From: an uncultured Chloroflexia bacterium
Lineage (GTDB): Bacteria > Chloroflexota > Anaerolineae > CG2-30-64-16
NCBI GenBank assembly: GCA_963774265.1
Contig: CAVZDU010000002.1
Coordinates: 256,001-320,000 of the forward strand
Length of the DNA stretch: 64,000 nucleotides
Reading direction: 5' to 3'
A program made the translations under genes and the position numbers. Positions 26,748 through 42,160 of the stretch are shown piece by piece (position 1 is the stretch's first letter; each line of letters starts with the position of its first letter). The notes beneath the pieces were generated by a model. It had not been told where the DNA came from and did not search any database. It was given only the letters and a program-made list of their open reading frames with translations.

Positions 26748-29679
26748 ATGCTCGATCGTAAATTTGATTCGCCAGATCGTCAGCGTTTGTCGCCTCGCTG
26801 GCAGGCGCTTAACGGTGTTCTCAACAGCGCGATGGTGTGGTGGCGTTTTGCCTTGATCTCGGCGGCAGTTCTGATCATTAAAACACCCGATGCGCGTGAG
26901 AACGCGCATCGGGTGCTTCTGACCTGGGCGGTTTCGTACGGCATCTATTCAGTTGTTGCCCTGTGGATTTCTGTGGCCTTCCCTGCATTCTATCATAAGC
27001 GACCGGCACGGCGGCTGCGGATTCTCGTTGATGTAGCTGCTATTACCATAGCACTTTTCATCGATCCGCTTGCTCTCCGATTTCTTTGGGTTTTCTACGC
27101 GATGCGTGTGCTAGCGGCTCTGCGCTATTTCGACGGGAACGAATGGTGGATCGTTCTGGGGACAAGCATCGTGAGCATTGTGGCGGCCACTTTGACTTTT
27201 GAGCCGCTGGGCAACGGTAATGCTGTGGCGATTGTTGGCAAGAGTGCGACCCTTGGAGTCATTACTGGAGGGTTCCATTACCTGCAAAGGCTCATCCCGC
27301 GTCTCTCAAACGCGGACTTCGTATCCGAATCAGCGCTGAAGTTACTGCAAGGTCTGGATCGAGGTCAGATTCTTGAGCAGATTGCACATCTGGTGCGAGA
27401 CGGCATCCCAACCGCGGACAGCGTTGTAATTCATATGCTAGGTGGCGATGACGGCATCACACTCATCCCGGTTTTCGGGCTTGGAATTGATATCAGCCTC
27501 CTGGGTCGATCGCCCATGCGCCTAGGGGAGGGAATCGCCGGCCGGGTCCTTTCCAACCGAATCGTGGATAATGTTGGCGATGTTAGAAGAAATCAGCACT
27601 TCCAACCACTGCCTGAAGATTCGCCGAGCTTGGTGTCGCTGCTGGTGGCGCCAATGTACATGGGTGACAGGAATATCGGCACGATCAGCGTGAACAGCTG
27701 GCGTCGGCGCGCCTTTGATGATCGTGATGAGCAGCTGACAAGGACTGCCGCTTCACAGGCCGCGCTTGCGTTGGCGAATAATCGGTTGTTCGAGAGGGGT
27801 CGTCGCCAGCGGAATCAGTTGAGCCAGATATTGAACGCGAGCTTGACCTTCAACCCCTTGCAGCCCGTGGATCGATTGCTGGATCAACTCGCCGAGGCTG
27901 TTTGTCGATACAGTGCGTTCGGCATGGCAGCAGTTAATCTGATTGATGACGCGATGGGGACCGTTTCGGTCGTTGCCACGGCGGGCATTCCTCAGCCCGC
28001 ACGAGAGGAACTGATGAAACAACGTATCCTCCTCTCGGAACTAGAGCCGTTGCTTCAGGAGCAGTTTCAGGTAAGCAGTATCCTATTTCGTGCACCACAA
28101 CCGTATGCCAAGTGGCCTGAACCTAGATGCCTATGGTTATACCCCGGACCTACCGGAGGCTGGTCCTGGTATGTGGCACAAAAAAGATGTTCTACTGGTT
28201 CCGATCGTAGAGCAAAACGGCAAGGTGTTAGGATATCTCTCGGTAGATGCCCCTGAGGATAAACAATTGCCGTCTTTCGAGTCAGTTCAGATCCTCGAAG
28301 TTCTAGCCAGACTTATCGGTGGCATGGCCTCTACAGCAGGGCTTTACGAAAAACTTCAGCAACAAAGTGGAGAGACAGAACGAGTCACCCGTTTGCTGCA
28401 TCTGCTAAACCGAATTGGCACTGTCACGCCCACCATGACCTCTCTTGAACGGATACTGCATGTCCACCTTACGGGAATCACGTCCAATGACGGCCTCCGT
28501 TTTAATCGTGCAAGTTTGTTTCAGTTGGAGCACGATGAGCGAACCTTGACCGGCGTAATGGCTATCGGTCAACTGGACGAACGCATGGCCCACTCCATTT
28601 GGGAGGAGATGGTCGCTGGCAGTTCTACTATCGACCTTTATCTACAGAATATGCAGGCTGGAGCACCGATCGAATGGACAGAGTTGCACAATCGTATTCA
28701 AGGTAAACGAATCGAGATTCCGGATGATCCATCGAATGCATTATATAGAGTGCTTCAATCCAAGTCCCCATTGATTGTGCATGCGTCATCCGAATCGTCT
28801 TTACCTCCCAATTTCGTCGCTATGTCGGAGACAAACACATCGGTGGTAGTAATCCCCTTGCTTGTGGGGAATCGGTTACTTGGCATGCTTATCTGCGACA
28901 ACAAGTTCACACAGGAGAAGCTAACCAACCTAGATTTGTTACTACACTTCGCCGCACGCATGGCTGCGATGATGGAGAACGATCGACTTAACAGAGAAGC
29001 TCGCGAGTCCGCGTCAGTGGCCGGCTGGCAACAGGGCGCGTACGACGAGCGTCAGCAGTTGCACGATAAACTGCATGACATCGTCGGTGAACTGCAGACA
29101 AGAGTTAGGTGGGATATTGAAGAAGCAACTGAGCATGTCGAGAACGGGCATCGTGAACAGGCAAAGGAGGACTTGGAGGACGGTCTTGCCATTCTGGATC
29201 AGATCACTGGGCCGCTGAAAGGAGTCGTCGAAGACCTGCGTCCAACAATCCTTGCGGGTGGAGACATACTCGACGCACTACGAAGTCGTGCCCCGCGGTT
29301 GCACCCTGGACAGGTTAGTGTGGATGGACAACTCCGCACAGTACTTCCGCAGAAGATTCGAAATGAACTGTATTGGGCGGGGAAAGAAGGCTTGACTAAT
29401 GCCGCCAAGTACTCGGGTGCGAAATCTGATCCGCAGATCCACATAGCGTTGTGGCTTGAGCAGTTGGACGATCAATCCGTTCAATTGTCCATAACTGATA
29501 ACGGCGTAGGATTTGACCCCAAGCTGTTGAACGAAAATGGCCGTTACGGCGGGCTGAGCCGACTCAAACAACGGGTGGAAAGAGCCGGAGGGCAATGTTT
29601 CATCCAATCGAAGGTTGGCACCGGCACGCAGCTATTCGTAGTTTTCTCGCTATCCCAGCAGGGAGCGGAGACAGAGTGA
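26748..29679 (+). CDS. Membrane-bound multi-GAF sensor histidine kinase (HisKA_3-type); one frameshift near 28080
   Basis: TM N-terminus, GAF motifs (GEGIAG, SLLVAPM, IPLLVG); LHD, EGLTNAAKYS, DNGVGF, GTGT; ORFs 26748-28256 and 28090-29679 join across one indel. Confidence 0.88.
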
Positions 29680-32806: not shown

Positions 32807-33196
32807 CTACATAGCCTCCCCCGGCTCCTCGCCGGCCTTTTCGGCCGCGGCCGCCGGCGCCTTCGGCCCCGTGCCGTTCCCGCCGGGCGCGGCCTTCAGC
32901 CGGATCACGGTCAGCTCCCACCCCGCGACCCGCATGGGCGTGGGTTCGAGCAGGACCTTCTTGCCGAAGCAGCTGGTCACATCGTCCCCAAAGAGCGCCT
33001 GCAGCGCGTCCTGGTTCGTCTGCGAGAGGACCAGGCCCTTTTTGGTCTCCCGGAAGTACAGCACCGCTGCGGGCCGGTTGCGCTTCTCGGCCTGGGAATA
33101 GACTTCTTCGACCACGACCTGGTCGATGGTGAGCGTGCGGGCCTTGCCCTGCAGGTGGTCGGCCTTGAGCCAGCGATCGAAATCACTCCACTTCAT
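32807..33196 (-). CDS. Phage-type hypothetical protein, possible OB-fold ssDNA-binding protein
   Basis: WLKADHL..LTI..V..E..VLYF..KGLVL..TN..LFGDD...GK pattern recalled from phage proteins; acidic low-complexity tail; GGAGA RBS; function inferred. Confidence 0.65.
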   Translation of the reverse strand: MKWSDFDRWLKADHLQGKARTLTIDQVVVEEVYSQAEKRNRPAAVLYFRETKKGLVLSQTNQDALQALFGDDVTSCFGKKVLLEPTPMRVAGWELTVIRLKAAPGGNGTGPKAPAAAAEKAGEEPGEAM

Positions 33197-36156: not shown

Positions 36157-37045
36157 ATGAAGCGTTTTGTCTTTTGGCTGCTCAGCATCGCTGCACTCAT
36201 CACCATGCTCTTGCCCGTCAGCACTCTGGCTGCAGCTCAGGGGCTGGTCAGGCCGGAGTCGGGCGACGCCAATGGCTACTCAGTCTACCTGCCGCTGGTT
36301 GTCAAGCTGCCTCCTCCCCCCGGCGATATGGTTCTCGTCCCCGCCGGCACGTTCCAGATGGGCTGCGACCCGGCGCACAACGGCGGCTACACGTGCTCCT
36401 CCGATGAGCTGCCGCTGCACACGGTGTACCTGGACGCGTACCGCATCGACCGGACCGAGGTGACCAACGCGCAGTACGCGCAGTGCGTGGCGGCCGGGGG
36501 GTGCACGCGCGCCATCCAACAGCTCGTCCTACACCCGTTCGTCCTATTACGGCAACCCGACCTACGCCAACTACCCGGTGATCTACGTGAGCTGGTATCA
36601 GGCGGCCGCCTACTGCGGGTGGGCGGGCAAGCGGCTGCCGACGGAGGCGGAGTGGGAGAAGGCGGCGCGCGGGGCGAGCGACACGCGGGCCTACCCGTGG
36701 GGCGATGCGGCGCCGACCTGCGCGCTGGCGAACAAGTATGATTGCGTAGGCGACACCAACGCGGTGGGCAGCTACCCGGCCGGGGCCAGCCCGTACGGCG
36801 CGCTGGACATGGCCGGCAATGTGTGGGAATGGGTCAACGACTGGTACGACGAGGGCTACTACAGCATCTCGCCGTACAGCAACCCGCCGGGGCCGACGAC
36901 GGGGACTATGAAGGTGCTGCGCGGGGGCGGTTGGGACTACTCCCGCTACGACGGCCATTTCCGCGCGCCGCGCCGCAACGCCTACTACCCGACGGTCCAG
37001 TTCTACCAGCTCGGTTTTCGGTGTGTTGCAGCCCCAGGAATGTGA
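36157..37045 (+). CDS. Secreted FGE-sulfatase/SUMF1 (CLec-fold) protein; one frameshift near 36510
   Basis: Signal peptide, [57 protein letters not shown]...GFRC. Confidence 0.9.
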
Positions 37046-37340
37046 GCTGCTGGGCTTTGGGTTCTGGCCTTCTGAGGGGGGAGCCTGAGGGGGCAAGACC
37101 CCCCCGTCCCCGCCAGCTCGGTAGCGCAGGGCCGGACTGAAGCCGGCCCCCGAGGGGGTCTGGGGCGAGGAGCCCCGGTCGGAGGGGGCGTTAGGGCCGC
37201 CTTCGGCGGCTCTAACGTAAGGGGGAACCCCAGTGGGGTGCCGCGTCTTTAGATCGGCCTGGCCGATAGGCCAGGTTCCACTGTTGGATCGTTTCGCCGC
37301 CGCAAAAAGGGGGACCGACCCACCCGGGCCGGCCCCCCGC
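37046..37340. other. Dense cluster of hairpins between the convergent FGE gene and the A-free ORF
   Basis: GGGGG-CAAGA-CCCCC, GGGGC-GAGGA-GCCCC, GTTAGGGCCGCC-TTC-GGCGGCTCTAAC, CCTGGCC-GATA-GGCCAGG, plus a minus-strand terminator ending TTTTT. Confidence 0.7.
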
Positions 37341-37350
37341 ACGCGGACCC

Positions 37351-37623
37351 TCACGCCCGCACCCAGCGCAGCGCGCCCGCCAGCGGACCGGACGACACGG
37401 CCACCCACGACCCACCCGGCGCCAGCGGAGCCAACGCAGAGGGCGGAAAGCCCACGCAGAACACCAACACGGACACCCCCAAGCCCGCAGCCAGCCGGGC
37501 AGCACCGAGCGACCCGACCGACGAGGGCGAGGAGAGGAACCACACCCCGACCGACGAGCGAGGCGCACCAGCCACGGGGCGCACACAGGCAGCGGATCGG
37601 CGAGCCAGGCGCGGCGTGAGCAT
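37351..37623 (-). CDS. Adenine-free ORF, C-terminal half of a SLOG/DprA-like protein (probably 5'-truncated)
   Basis: No T on the + strand at 37352-37596; SVGSLGAARLAAGLGVSVLVF resembles DprA SGSLITARLA..GREVF. Confidence 0.55.
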   Translation of the reverse strand: MLTPRLARRSAACVRPVAGAPRSSVGVWFLSSPSSVGSLGAARLAAGLGVSVLVFCVGFPPSALAPLAPGGSWVAVSSGPLAGALRWVRA

Positions 37624-37886
37624 CCGCCCAGCTATCGTGAATCATCACGGCATCGGCGCTGACGCCGGCCGTGAGAGTGGCACGATCGCTATCGAGCACG
37701 AACGGAGGCTCGCTCGACTGCCAGGCGGCCAGCAGGTCGGTTGTGGCACCCCACCGGGGCTGTTCGGGTCTGCCAGAAGCCCAACGGATTTAGCGGAACA
37801 GGGTTCAGTCATGGGGCACCTCCTCAAAGTGGGTATGGGTCGGTCACCGGTTTGGCCCTCACCAGTGTAAGTGCCCCAACACTTGG

Positions 37887-38528
37887 CTACCCATCGAACT
37901 GTACGGAGCTTGATCCCTGCTCTACAGATCTGCTTTTCCGGGCTAGAATCACCTGGTGACGTTCGTCCCCGCCTTCGTCGATTTCGTCCAGTAGTATCTC
38001 GAAGCCGGCGCCACGGATGATCGCACTATTCTCATCAGGGCCGTAATGGCTCCACCACATCGTTACACCGTAGAAATCAGATTCGGCACCTTCCCATTTT
38101 GAGGCGCCCATAGTCACCAGGATGTATCCACCCGGCCTCAAGAACGTGTTGATGGTGCGGAAAAGCGATTCGTGCGATTCTCTTGGTAGGTGGAAGATCG
38201 CGTAGAACGAAACAACCGCATCGACCTGGTACTCGCTGGCGCACAGTCCGCGCATGTCTGCCACCGCGAAGGTGGCCCCAGGCACATTGGCGCGCGCTAG
38301 TTCGATTTGTTTTTCGGAGATGTCCAGGCCGCTAACTCGAAACCCTCGATCTACAAGATAGCGATCGATCGGAATGCCGGCTCCGCAACCAAGATCGAGA
38401 ACGGCCGCCTGAGGTTTAAGAAGCGGCGTGAGCTTATCCAAATATCGATTGCTCTTGAACTGATTGCGTCCCCGAAGGTAGGCTTCAGCAGCTTTGTTAT
38501 AGCTGTCTTTCACGATGGAATCAGCCAT
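37887..38528 (-). CDS. Class I SAM-dependent methyltransferase
   Basis: VLDLGCGAG, GLDISEKQI, ADM, FYAIFHLP, LRPGG. Confidence 0.92.
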   Translation of the reverse strand: MADSIVKDSYNKAAEAYLRGRNQFKSNRYLDKLTPLLKPQAAVLDLGCGAGIPIDRYLVDRGFRVSGLDISEKQIELARANVPGATFAVADMRGLCASEYQVDAVVSFYAIFHLPRESHESLFRTINTFLRPGGYILVTMGASKWEGAESDFYGVTMWWSHYGPDENSAIIRGAGFEILLDEIDEGGDERHQVILARKSRSVEQGSSSVQFDG

Positions 38529-38639
38529 GCCGGATTTGTCTCCCCTTGTGGTAGGTCGGCCACACGTGGCGGTCGGCCGCCGTCACGAGGGCGTTGGACA
38601 CGTAAGCGTGAGCGAGGTCTGCGCCTTGCCAAGGGCTAG

Positions 38640-40234
38640 CAGCCTGTCGGAGAGTTGCCACTGTGGGACAGGCTGAATCGTGATACACTGGTCGCATGAC
38701 CAGAAAATTCAAGACGGTTGACTACGAAGCGGCTCTCGATCAGACGGTCAGTCTGCGAGAAGCGTTGCCGGCCAATCATCTGGCTCGGTTCGTGGTAGAG
38801 TTGGTGGCCCAGCTGGATTTAACCAACATCTACCAACGCTATGGAGCACACGGCGGCGAAGCCTATGCGCCGGAGATCCTGCTGGCGCTGTTGTTTTACG
38901 GCTACGCCACTGGCGTGTTCAGTTCCCGCAAGATCGAAAGGGCGACCTACGAGACGTTGCCTTTCCGGTTTGTAGCGGGCGGGCTGCATCCCGATCACGA
39001 CACGCTGGCGAACTTTCGCAAGACGTTTCGGGTCGAGATCAAAGAGCTGTTCGTGCAAGTGCTGTTTCTGGCCCAGGCTACTGGCTACTTCAAGCTTGGC
39101 AACATCAGCATGGATGGCTCCAAGGTGCATGCCAATGCTTCCAAGAGCAAGGCGATCAGCTTCAAACGGCTACTGGAACTGGAAGCCCACTTGCGGGCCG
39201 AAGTGGACCAGTTGTTCATCCTGGCTGAACAGGCGGACCGCCACGAACTGTCGGACGCCATGAATGTCGCCGACGAGATCACTTTACGACAGGAACGTCT
39301 TGAGCGGTTGGCCGAGGCCAAGAAGGTGCTGCAAGCCCGGGCGCAGGAGCGGCAGGCGGCCGAGCAGGCCGAGTACGAAGCCAAGCAACGTGAGCGCGCG
39401 GCCAAAGCCAAGCGCTCAGGACGCAAGCCGCCGGGACGGCCGCCAACGCCGCCGTCTGGCGAGCCGCAGGACAAGGACCCGTACAACTTCACCGACCCTG
39501 AGTCGCGCATCATGAAGTGTTCCAGCAGCGCCGGGTTTGAGCAAGCCTACAACGCCCAGGTGGCAGTAGACCAGGATAGCTTGTTGATCGTCGCCTATAG
39601 CTTGTCCAACCGCCCGAACGACAAAGCCGAGGCTGAACCAACTCTGGAAGCTCTGCCACCGGCCCTGGGCACGCCCGCAGCGGCGGCGCTGGACAACGGC
39701 TTCTGGAGCGAGAAGAATCTCGCTGCTCTGGAAAAGCGGCGCATCGAGCCTTACATCGCCACGGGCCGCGAGCCGCATCACAAGAGTTGGCAAGAGCGCT
39801 TCACCGCCGAGCCCGAGCCGCCAGCGGAGGATGCCAGCCCGCAGGTCAAGATGGCCTACAGGCTGCGTACTGAGATCGGCCAGGCGATCTACCGCTTACG
39901 CAAATGCACCGTCGAGCCGGTGATTGGCATCATCAAAGCGGTGCTCGGCTTCCGCCAGTTCTCGTTACGCGGCCTCAACGCCGCCGATAGCGAATGGGCC
40001 CTGGTCTGTTTGGCCTTTAACCTGAAGCGCATGCATACGTTGAGCTTGGCCTAACCGCGCCCAGTGCATGCTGGAGGCGGCTCGATGCAGCGCCGCCCGC
40101 CTGAGTTTGGGATGTTAAGGATCATTTTCGATACTCGCCTGCCGGAGACCGTCACTACCAGCCGCTAACGTTAGCCCTTTGGGCTTACCGTACCGGCTGT
40201 TAGCCAGCCAATAACGCTCCTCTCCGACAGGCTG
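38640..40234 (+). mobile_element. IS1182-family insertion sequence
   Basis: IRs CAGCCTGTCGGAGAG / CTCTCCGACAGGCTG; CTAG on both sides (38636-38639, 40235-40238). Confidence 0.9.
38696..40054 (+). CDS. IS1182-family transposase
   Basis: YGYATGVFSSRKIE, PDHDTLANFR, DGSK, TDPESRIMK, YNAQ, DNGF, RKCTVEPVIG. Confidence 0.95.
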   Translation: MTRKFKTVDYEAALDQTVSLREALPANHLARFVVELVAQLDLTNIYQRYGAHGGEAYAPEILLALLFYGYATGVFSSRKIERATYETLPFRFVAGGLHPDHDTLANFRKTFRVEIKELFVQVLFLAQATGYFKLGNISMDGSKVHANASKSKAISFKRLLELEAHLRAEVDQLFILAEQADRHELSDAMNVADEITLRQERLERLAEAKKVLQARAQERQAAEQAEYEAKQRERAAKAKRSGRKPPGRPPTPPSGEPQDKDPYNFTDPESRIMKCSSSAGFEQAYNAQVAVDQDSLLIVAYSLSNRPNDKAEAEPTLEALPPALGTPAAAALDNGFWSEKNLAALEKRRIEPYIATGREPHHKSWQERFTAEPEPPAEDASPQVKMAYRLRTEIGQAIYRLRKCTVEPVIGIIKAVLGFRQFSLRGLNAADSEWALVCLAFNLKRMHTLSLA

Positions 40235-40620: not shown

Positions 40621-42160
40621 CTTGCGGTACCCCACTTTGTAATGCCAGCTAGTTGAATAGATCGACAGCTTCGGGCATCTTGTGTTATTCCACAAACCCA
40701 AGTATCCGGAGCTGTCGATGACCTTAACATATGCTGATGTGTTGACATTTGTCCAGCATCTCACACCCACGTGGGTCAAGCCGCAGCAGAGCATGCTGGC
40801 GCAGATCGTGAGTGCGTTGACGGAACGTCCGAGCTTCTGTGCGACCGAGGTGGCGCGTGCGCTGCCCGACGGACCGCGTGCGCAGGGCCGCCAGTCGTTG
40901 CATGGTCGGCTCAAACGGCTGAACCGCTTTCTGAGCAATCCACGCCTGGATGAGCCCGAGATCTTCTATCGGTGGTACCGCTTAGCCGTCCACTTTAGCA
41001 CCGCGGTGCCGACGGACCCGCAACTATTGCCCGTCTTACTCGACACGACGTATTTCGAGCCCTTTGCGGCCCTGATTGCCAGCGTGCCCTGTGGCGGCCG
41101 CGCCTTGCCCATCGTGTTCACCACCTATCATCGCCGCCAACTCCGGGCCTGTTTCCCCCCGGCCGCCCGCTGGCCCACGCCCGATACGACCAGCATCCGG
41201 CCCGCACGACGGCAGCACCAACCGCTGCAAGCGGCGAGCGCCGAGGTGCACCACTGGACCAGTCAAAACCATATCGAGGAACACCTGCTCCATTACCTGG
41301 GGTCCTTGGCCACCCCCAGCCAGCAAATCGTGATCGTGGCGGATCGCGGGTTTGCGCGCGCCAGTCTTTTCCGCTGGTTTCTGACCCACCAGCGCCAGTT
41401 TGTGATTCGGTTCGACGGCGAAACCTGGCTGCACCTGCCCGACGGGACGGCCGGCGCGGCCAAGGACGTGTTGGCCCTGCAACCCGGCCAACGGCGCTGG
41501 CTGCCGCAGGCTCAGTACGGCAAAGACGACCCAGTGCCCGTGGCGGTCCTGGCGCTCTGGGAAGTCGGTCACAAGGAACCCTGGTATCTGGCTACCCATC
41601 TACCGTCTGAACCCGCCACCGAAACCTGTTATCGCTGGCGTATGCGCATTGAAGCCGGTAACCGCGACGACAAATCCGGCGTCATGCTCCGCGAAAGCGG
41701 CGATGAACACCGCCTTAAGTCACCCTTACATGTGCACAGCTTGCTCCTGGCCAACCTGTGCCTGCACTGGCTCGCCGCACTCACGGGCCTCCAGGCCCAT
41801 CATGACTTGGCGCAACCGCACGCGATCGCCCCCGCCCTCGAAGCGGCACCCCCGGATACACCGGATGCCGACTTGCTGGCCCATGGCCCCGCCCAGCCGC
41901 CCCCAGTCATCCCCCATCGCGGCCCACAACCCCACCTCCCCCACTGGATGCGCCGCTTTGCCGCACGCGGCTGGCTCAGCTATGTGCGCCTCGGCCTCGA
42001 AATCCTGCGCGCCCCCGCCTGGTCGACACTCGTCCGCCGCGCCGTCCACTGGCTCGGCGTCTATCTCTGGACCACAACCCCGCTCTGGCGCCCATGGCAG
42101 CGTCGCTACCGCCTCAAACACTGGTGGCCCCTACCAAGCTAGAAAGTGGGGTACCGCAAG
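40621..42160 (+). mobile_element. IS4-family insertion sequence
   Basis: Perfect 18-bp IR CTTGCGGTACCCCACTTT / AAAGTGGGGTACCGCAAG; 9-bp TSD CCCTTAGCG at 40612-40620 and 42161-42169. Confidence 0.92.
40682..42142 (+). CDS. IS4-family DDE transposase
   Basis: LLDTT, VADRGF, FVIR, EPWYLAT, YREK-type YRWRMRIEAGNRDDK; start uncertain. Confidence 0.88.
   Translation: MLFHKPKYPELSMTLTYADVLTFVQHLTPTWVKPQQSMLAQIVSALTERPSFCATEVARALPDGPRAQGRQSLHGRLKRLNRFLSNPRLDEPEIFYRWYRLAVHFSTAVPTDPQLLPVLLDTTYFEPFAALIASVPCGGRALPIVFTTYHRRQLRACFPPAARWPTPDTTSIRPARRQHQPLQAASAEVHHWTSQNHIEEHLLHYLGSLATPSQQIVIVADRGFARASLFRWFLTHQRQFVIRFDGETWLHLPDGTAGAAKDVLALQPGQRRWLPQAQYGKDDPVPVAVLALWEVGHKEPWYLATHLPSEPATETCYRWRMRIEAGNRDDKSGVMLRESGDEHRLKSPLHVHSLLLANLCLHWLAALTGLQAHHDLAQPHAIAPALEAAPPDTPDADLLAHGPAQPPPVIPHRGPQPHLPHWMRRFAARGWLSYVRLGLEILRAPAWSTLVRRAVHWLGVYLWTTTPLWRPWQRRYRLKHWWPLPS

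Follow-up and report, generated by a model that had tools for sequence, protein, structure and literature searches.

The stretch of DNA analysed here, hereafter the window, comprises 64,000 nucleotides of contig CAVZDU010000002.1 (positions 256,001 to 320,000 of the forward strand; assembly GCA_963774265.1), part of a metagenome-assembled genome (MAG) of an uncultured Chloroflexia bacterium with 10 contigs, a size of 5.5 Mb and an estimated completeness of 84%. Its + strand holds a run of 245 nt without a single T, which lies opposite a minus-strand open reading frame (ORF) related to the DprA-like proteins of the SLOG superfamily. The parts of this minus-strand unit are the following.

37351 to 37623, minus strand: ORF of 90 codons plus a TGA stop, corresponding to family-profile positions 104-193, the C-terminal half of a DprA-like SLOG-fold protein.
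37352 to 37596: T-free run of 245 nt, A-free on the minus (sense) strand, from a base scan.
37295 to 37350: second T-free run of 56 nt, the 3' untranslated part of the minus-strand unit including its terminator, from the same scan.
37304 to 37338, minus strand: intrinsic-terminator-like site, a stem at 37338-37309 followed by TTTTT at 37308-37304, kept in a second copy of the unit on contig L031.

The first-pass annotation of the window, made from the letters alone, had described the + strand as T-free from 37352 to 37596 and the only T of 37295-37596 as the counterpart of the A in the stop codon, and the base scan bears out both statements. The run consists of 105 C, 78 G and 62 A, the T at 37351 pairs with the A of the minus-strand TGA (37353-37351), and the T positions across 37295-37623 are 37351, 37597, 37617 and 37623. 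On the minus strand, A is confined to the ATG (codon 1), an ACG (codon 3), a CGA (codon 9) and the TGA (codon 91) of the ORF, which contains 81 A-less codons in a row. Twelve nucleotides past the TGA begins the terminator-like site, called by consensus scan only, with a hairpin of 13 pairs (11 G-C and two G-T wobbles) and a loop of 4 that holds no A, followed by TTTTT.

Given a T share of 19.5% in the window, a 245-nt T-free run has a probability of about 8e-24, or about 4e-16 genome-wide after multiplication by eight times the genome length for all positions, bases and strands. It is the longest T-free run of the window and the longest of nine single-base-free runs of at least 90 nt in the genome, as found by a scan of the kind proposed at first pass; the other long runs inspected are tandem repeats or sense-strand T-free coding of Pro/Thr/Ala-rich linkers (for example 187 nt at C6:281815 and 125 nt at C3:486385). 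The run itself is non-repetitive (no row from Tandem Repeats Finder, direct repeats inside it of at most 17 nt, and one 24-nt pair outside it) and is present once in the genome, with blastn of 37046-37900 returning the self match only. Within the window, an 84-nt A-free run of the + strand at 32814-32897 lies opposite the Ala/Pro/Gly/Glu-rich tail of a small ORF on the minus strand (32807-33196), whose sense strand is T-free there, an ordinary low-complexity contrast to the 245-nt run. Elsewhere in the genome, an A-rich segment at the extreme end of contig C8 (G000:C8:353814-354064) contains a 213-nt C-free and a 175-nt T-free run and is probably a contig-end artefact or a simple repeat.

The T-free sequence is not an artefact of this assembly, because it recurs on contigs of three further public metagenome runs, two from soil and one from freshwater, which belong to three studies. 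Pieces of 37106-37730 were recovered there on short contigs with about 90-98% identity to the window, indel-free except for one 51-nt skip, and none of the 12 listed inter-sample differences within the run brings in a T. An assembly or sequencing error could be suspected, since the MAG is in 10 contigs and shows apparent frameshifts, one of them in the neighbouring FGE-domain gene, but we regard this as next to inconceivable: the same sequence, indel-free in the run, occurs in all three studies, and an independent bioreactor contig carries a 276-nt A-free homologue. The skip concerns a 51-nt hairpin segment (37184-37234) of the spacer downstream of the unit, missing from one freshwater-metagenome contig in which 37183 is joined to 37235. 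An exact 24-mer of the region had no match in metagenome-contig or genome-contig collections, and the phage and plasmid collections had no match to the region either; against 41 related genomes it gave only short chance-like matches plus the 3' end of the FGE gene.

The minus-strand ORF owes its place in the DprA family to its matches with family members: phmmer of the 90-aa sequence against 1.84 billion cluster representatives found 45 proteins at E<=1e-3 (2 at E<=1e-10), the best at E 2.5e-14 with 59% identity across residues 3-89. The ORF aligns to the C-terminal part of almost all 45 targets and near the N-terminus in three; these relatives are typically about 160-260 aa long with a domain of about 190 aa. 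The fragment alone matches no Pfam model even at E<=10. In an alignment of 39 members (A1), the conserved blocks read G-S-R-x-L, V-G-C-A-x-G-A-D, W-W-A-G-G, P-L-R-x-R-L-A-x-R-S, F-L-x-S-P-x-S-R-G-S-L and V-F-C-x-G-F, the last three of which are matched by the window ORF. Pfam DNA_processg_A (PF02481; best 3.9e-7) and TIGR00732 dprA each match 11 of the 39 members, the DprA-like PHROG 768 matches six and the cpYpsA SLOG model one, and the family profile finds DprA among PDB sequences (3uqz at E 1.7e-4, 3maj at E 6e-4). The fold was examined on a full-length homologue, P0014, rather than on the window fragment; with A1 as alignment, AlphaFold2 predicts an alpha/beta fold (predicted local distance difference test, pLDDT, 95.6; predicted template modelling score 0.91) whose top Foldseek matches in the PDB are the DprA structures 5mll, 4ljk, 3uqz and 3maj (TM score about 0.54, probability 1.00), followed by ShosA (8zva), then TRPM SLOG domains and LOG enzymes. 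Judged from these profiles and the model, the ORF is a DprA/SLOG-like fragment, as had been proposed from its motif at first pass, and the minus-strand reading is the meaningful one. Some members carry fused parts of normal composition: DUF4326 in one (P0045, by eye), a SWIM zinc finger in one (P0032, by eye), and a membrane anchor with a helix-hairpin-helix-like tail in P0007 and P0017 (by eye); P0030, outside the scanned alignment, is DUF4326-like by eye only.

Coding on the + strand, with the run specifying a hydrophilic disordered region, or a mere chance composition, is a very improbable account. It would agree with the T-free linker coding seen in other long runs of the genome and at 32814-32897; moreover the + frame that shares third positions with the minus frame has the same GC content at third codon positions (0.84 in both, by base composition per codon phase), reads as a disordered protein, and takes slightly fewer amino-acid changes from the sample variants (7 vs 9 in the minus frame). 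However, that frame contains no ATG, GTG or TTG between the stop at 37250 and 37616 and has no homologue against 45 for the minus frame, its third positions lack T over about 100 codons and then show it frequently directly after 37597, and chance is countered by the genome-wide probability of about 4e-16. Two longer frames over the region, the upstream minus frame 37298-37783 and the + frame 37253-37867, had no homologues at near lengths; the former gave weak matches (E 0.0015-0.0095) in five of 60 related genomes, and Pfam returned nothing on these frames apart from one sub-threshold PARM match (E 0.044). Rfam gave no match at E<=1, and a structured-RNA reading was rejected, with folds of the run on either strand no stabler than those of shuffled sequences (z -0.90 and -1.45).

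Across all six frames of 36900-38700, the family profile matches only positions 104-193, and the N-terminal G-S-R and G-x-G-A-D motifs are absent from the window copy; the rest of the genome has no other copy and yields only a weak profile match to the host's own DprA. Because nothing but profile positions 104-193 is found in the region and the genome, the 5' half has been lost, as the first-pass annotation had supposed, and the window copy is a 5'-truncated remnant without its N-terminal half, probably non-functional as its ATG has no visible ribosome-binding site. A second truncated copy occurs on a 1.6-kb bioreactor contig, L031. This copy has a 276-nt A-free run and agrees with the window copy at 231 of 276 aligned bases; TGA, terminator and about 23 nt of 3' flank are common to both. 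At its 5' end it is joined in frame to the beginning of a carboxyltransferase gene, at a point that lies 23 codons further in than the joint of the window copy, and its flanks are otherwise unrelated to the window. The fusion partner, named by eye, amounts to approximately the first 100 codons of a carboxyltransferase-like (PccB-like) gene within L031 1-1000. The two copies, the only ones known, thus have one 3' end, lying past the terminator, and different 5' joints, at which no duplication was seen. A pair of copies is compatible with either of two origins, an element that has decayed down to its edge or retrocopying that stopped short. The sequence on either side of the remnant is as follows.

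37281 to 37303, minus strand: about 23 nt past the terminator T-run, common to L031, where the similarity stops (alignment to L031); by sequence comparison this marks the shared 3' end of the two truncated copies.
37597 to 37830, minus strand: sequence upstream of the unit, of ordinary A content and without relationship to the DprA-like family (composition, profile search).

The upstream flank has coding-like periodicity in a different minus frame and is also found on a soil-metagenome contig that spans the junction.

The adenine avoidance turned out to be a property of relatives elsewhere. Many homologues consist almost entirely of F, L, S, C, W, P, R, V, A and G, all of which can be encoded by A-less codons. 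This A-less set accounts for at least 93% of the domain residues in 27 of 52 rows; the most extreme proteins, P0041 and P0018, have an Asp as their sole exception, and P0027, P0023 and P0034 have the Asp plus one other residue. DNA was available for nine homologous loci from Bacteroidota, Ignavibacteriota and Chlorobiaceae MAGs, whose overall A content is 23-31%. The expectation raised by the first-pass annotation, that the homologous genes would be poor in A, held for six of the nine loci, where the domain has 2-6% A, and held mildly or not at all for the other three at 13-16%. T in the domain is raised to 32-39% at homologous loci, the A-depleted segments are sharp-edged, and the longest A-free run among these loci measures 200 nt (L027). 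The host's own DprA in the source genome has a normal A content of 18.5%.

The avoidance acts on nucleotides rather than only on residues, as A is avoided at all three codon positions. At fourfold sites A occurs in 5 of 135 (L022), 6 of 135 (L025) and 2 of 155 (L027) cases, against 0.36, 0.32 and 0.25 in the flanking long ORFs. The earlier statement that the purge goes beyond an effect of GC content holds. In L027 only 7 of 179 codons contain A, including the start codon and the one for the Asp in the G-A-D motif. Nucleotide-level A avoidance is a trait of part of the DprA-like family that recurs across phyla and in hosts of differing base composition, and it was inherited and not made at the window locus. 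The trait is limited to one gene per locus and genome, both in the genome run scan and at the nine loci. With all its frames free of stop codons, A-less DNA leads ORF callers to lengthen or fuse genes at loci L022-L030, as seen in database entries of 253-394 aa for a domain of about 190 aa and in ORFs that overlap in all three frames at L022 5762-7023. A literature search found no description of adenine-free genes in bacteria or phages, with most subscription journals outside its coverage, and the sole adenine-poor coding elements that it turned up were eukaryotic signal-sequence regions.

The avoidance also reaches beyond the codons. In the window and in L031 the A-free sequence continues through the stretch from stop to terminator, about 180 nt ahead of the L022 ATG have 7-9% A, and in L027 the depletion starts about 40 nt ahead of the ATG. 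Five database proteins have 'extensions' of 55-184 residues N-terminal to the domain with 95-100% A-less residues, which look like translated non-coding DNA. These observations bear on the proposal that selection acts at decoding, where A-less codons need no tRNAs with U in the anticodon, so that the protein could still be made under anticodon nucleases or tRNA depletion with no need for the tRNAs of Lys, Asn, Asp, Glu, Gln, His, Tyr and similar. Avoidance at all three codon positions agrees with it, as does the short lead of about 40 nt in L027; but the continuation through the 3' untranslated terminator of both truncated copies, together with the long A-poor leader of L022 and the non-coding-looking extensions, makes decoding an unlikely level of selection.

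A mutational process without selection and without a reverse transcriptase (RT), such as adenine deamination or damage of an exposed sense strand of this one gene, deserves similarly little credence. It would suit the restriction of the trait to one gene per locus and genome, and the 12 listed differences of the remnant, none of which introduces a sense-strand A. A deaminase, however, gives A-to-G only, while C, G and T are all seen in place of A, mostly T at the fourfold sites of AT-rich hosts; the leftover A's belong to the start and stop codons and to the conserved-motif Asp, a signature of selection; and the edges of the depletion track the gene unit.

The remaining candidate for the purge leads to the other side of the locus, where the remnant lies tail-to-tail with another gene.

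36157 to 37045, plus strand: convergent gene with an FGE-sulfatase domain (domain match), frameshifted near 36497-36507, its 3' end aligning with the variable region of genome G004.
37096 to 37280: hairpin-rich spacer with no counterpart in the relatives searched (comparison with relatives).

The first-pass annotation had called this neighbour similar to a target of diversity-generating retroelements (DGRs), and this likeness is real: in the same-genus genome G004 (L015, C17:6000-24000, reverse complement) the orthologous FGE domain ends a protein of 1044 aa that is a true DGR target, and a 353-aa RT of DGR type, an Avd-like ORF and a template repeat (TR) come after it. The TR and the variable region (VR) of G004 form a pair of 121 nt with 81.8% identity, which served as the positive control of our TR search. 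When the 3' end of the window FGE gene is aligned to the VR and TR of G004, the differences fall mostly at TR adenines, along with a 6-nt insertion and others, so that in sequence the window gene looks like an orphan former DGR target, now frameshifted. Synteny with relatives stops on the FGE side at about 37095 and on the methyltransferase side at about 37920, leaving 0.8 kb in between without a counterpart in the relatives searched. Past the methyltransferase gene (37887-38528, minus strand) lie two long + strand ORFs, 38696-40054 and 40682-42142, that are transposase-like by reading, which suggests a rearranged region. Further away, the long overlapping same-strand ORFs 26748-28256 and 28090-29679 may be one sensor-kinase gene with a frameshift; with the frameshifted FGE gene, they hint at indel errors or pseudogenes in the assembly.

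To our knowledge, DGRs are the sole well-known adenine-specific sequence-changing process in bacteria and phages. The first-pass annotation had offered repeated copying by a DGR-type RT as one cause of the purge; on this reading the truncated copies would be insertions of 5'-incomplete cDNA. Several features fit such copying: the even replacement of A by the other three bases, which holds roughly for the AT-rich loci overall, the sharp-edged depleted segments, the absence of any new sense-strand A among the inter-sample differences, the two copies with a common 3' end, differing 5' truncation and unrelated contexts, and the position of the window copy where a same-genus relative has the RT, Avd and TR of a real DGR.

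Against it stands the lack of any machinery or source. The source genome (84% complete) has no RVT_1 match and no tblastn match to the RT or Avd of G004, neither the FGE 3' end nor the T-free run (blastn of 37046-37900) has a TR-like partner in the genome, and all nine homologous loci lack an RT or Avd in the surrounding 6 kb or so, so that the suggested co-occurrence of homologues with these genes was not found. In five host genomes searched for RVT_1, three had none, one had seven identical 442-aa copies elsewhere and one had a partial weak match. A hypermutated parent was sought by BLAST with T collapsed to C, A or G (both strands, genome and relatives' loci), which did no better than shuffled queries, and a parent in the G004 DGR cassette by local alignment with T as wildcard, which was no better than shuffles. 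Furthermore, the run is on the opposite strand from the local DGR target, the shared 3' end lies about 23 nt past the terminator T-run and so beyond the end of a terminated transcript, and the replacement of fourfold-site A mostly by T in AT-rich hosts (T share 0.51-0.59 at these sites) resembles selection combined with host bias. A DGR mechanism for the purge at this locus is not supported, adenine-mutagenic RT copying as the source of the purge is improbable in our estimate, and the remnant beside a decayed DGR is an unexplained coincidence, not evidence of mechanism.

Taken together, the reading that we prefer, at a probability of roughly 0.6, is that the T-free run is the antisense of a 5'-truncated remnant of a DprA-like gene from a part of its family that is kept poor in A by selection on the sense strand or its transcript. 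It builds on points established above, namely the identity of the ORF, its truncation, the family-wide avoidance of A at the nucleotide level and the absence of a DGR partner. The remnant comprises the last 90 codons, the TGA, the intrinsic terminator and about 23 nt beyond, and it would merely have inherited the trait. In that part of the family the sense strand is almost free of A at all three codon positions and in the adjoining untranslated sequence, which leaves proteins made of some ten kinds of residue (F, L, S, C, W, P, R, V, A and G) and a handful of others that cannot be spared, for instance the Asp of G-x-G-A-D. We infer that selection would act on the sense strand or the transcript, or equivalently for a T-free template, so that the gene would stay expressible or undamaged in a phage-host conflict involving attack on RNA adenine, on template thymine or on the ATP supply. 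Because no other gene at the loci or in the source genome shows the trait, its cause would be tied to the role of the protein or the time at which it is needed. Selection against A-targeting on one strand, the other cause named at first pass, thus fits better than DGR copying and is itself unproven.

A number of points weigh against the preferred reading. The analysis turned up neither a selective agent nor a sign of expression; inspection of the sequence ahead of the minus-strand ATG revealed no Shine-Dalgarno-like sequence, and eight of the nine candidate ORFs of the region, including the minus-strand ORF, are absent from the protein collection. The trait is not universal in the family: three of the nine loci (L023, L028 and L030) are mildly or not A-depleted, and the copy in G084, the only other one from the phylum, is just mildly A-poor. 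In some members, for example P0008 and P0017, the ORF continues into an A-rich tail, a poor fit to a purely transcript-wide requirement. That none of the 12 listed inter-sample differences creates a sense-strand A could indicate a mutational cause; since eight of the 12 fall within 18 nt and may be one event, this is weak evidence against selection. Lastly, a pair of 5'-truncated copies that stop at the same 3' point, with a decayed DGR next to one of the two, could also be a product of reverse transcription.

The gene itself seems foreign to the host. The family occurs in none of the 60 related genomes and in one of 400 other sampled genomes of the phylum (G084). The contexts of homologues resemble mobile elements, with an N6-methylase/SNF2 helicase fusion and a NACHT protein at L022, and an AAA_24 (phrog_1366) protein and AbiEi at L027; among the nearest ESM Atlas clusters Uroviricota is the commonest phylum. 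One neighbour family, without a Pfam or PHROG match, is common to three of six loci, no conserved partner gene was found at the loci compared, and viral contigs searched with alignment A2 gave no match. On sequence grounds, horizontal acquisition of a gene of phage or mobile-element type appears to be the best explanation.

Compared with known systems, the family is closest to DprA/Smf (PF02481, TIGR00732; SLOG superfamily), with which it shares profile matches, the structural match, a Rossmann-like core and the G-S-R and G-x-G-x-D motifs. Unlike DprA, its proteins are single-domain and about 190 aa long, with no flanking SAM or winged-helix domain by Pfam, and they occur in mobile or phage-like contexts, are rare in the host lineage and in many cases are encoded almost without A, whereas the host DprA has a normal composition. 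ShosA is the DprA-like antitoxin of the ShosTA defence system. It ranks eighth in the fold search with P0014, and the phage DprA-like PHROG 768 is among the models that match the family; no PRTase-type partner gene, as in ShosTA, lies beside the loci examined, and no compositional oddity of ShosA is reported in the material examined. The likeness to DGRs consists in the true VR, TR, RT and Avd set at the orthologous FGE gene of G004. Unlike a DGR, the A-less gene has no RT, Avd or TR here and no RT or Avd at the nine homologous loci, and the depleted segment spans 0.3-0.7 kb or more, a whole gene unit, vs 100-150 nt for a VR.

Sequence avoidance is known from restriction sites in phages and plasmids and from ACA-less mRNAs that escape the MazF RNase. 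The present case is alike in that a gene would escape attack by not holding the attacked sequence, and unlike in that a whole nucleotide is dropped on one strand of one gene, forcing a reduced amino-acid alphabet. Candidate agents of such an attack include ATP-depleting or ATP-converting systems, A-cutting RNases, and ADP-ribosylation of mRNA adenine or of thymine in a single-stranded template. Since binding or cleavage of nucleotide and ribosyl compounds is what SLOG and LOG folds do, the DprA-like protein could be a counter-measure. A more specific and tentative version, to which we give clearly less weight than to selection as such, is that in a subfamily of phage and mobile-element DprA-like proteins the whole unit from leader to terminator is purposely A-less and the protein folds from about ten amino-acid types and a single essential Asp, a composition-based evasion of immunity that would leave the gene transcribable, translatable or undamaged under attack and in which the SLOG protein may be the antidote; the attack would then be ATP depletion, ATP-to-ITP conversion, A-specific collateral RNases or the ADP-ribosylation just mentioned.

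The window copy itself carries small biological weight, as a truncated relic beside a decayed DGR target. For annotation, a long run that lacks one base can be the sign of a real gene on the other strand, and such genes are easily mis-called because the lack of stop codons leads to fused or extended ORFs. If the trait is selected, it would represent a new escape route for a gene, through the loss of a single DNA letter from its sense strand, and a natural experiment in protein design, in which a Rossmann-like fold (predicted, pLDDT 95.6) is made from about ten amino acids. It would also point to a weapon directed at adenine or thymine, of which the DprA-like protein would be a likely counter-measure.

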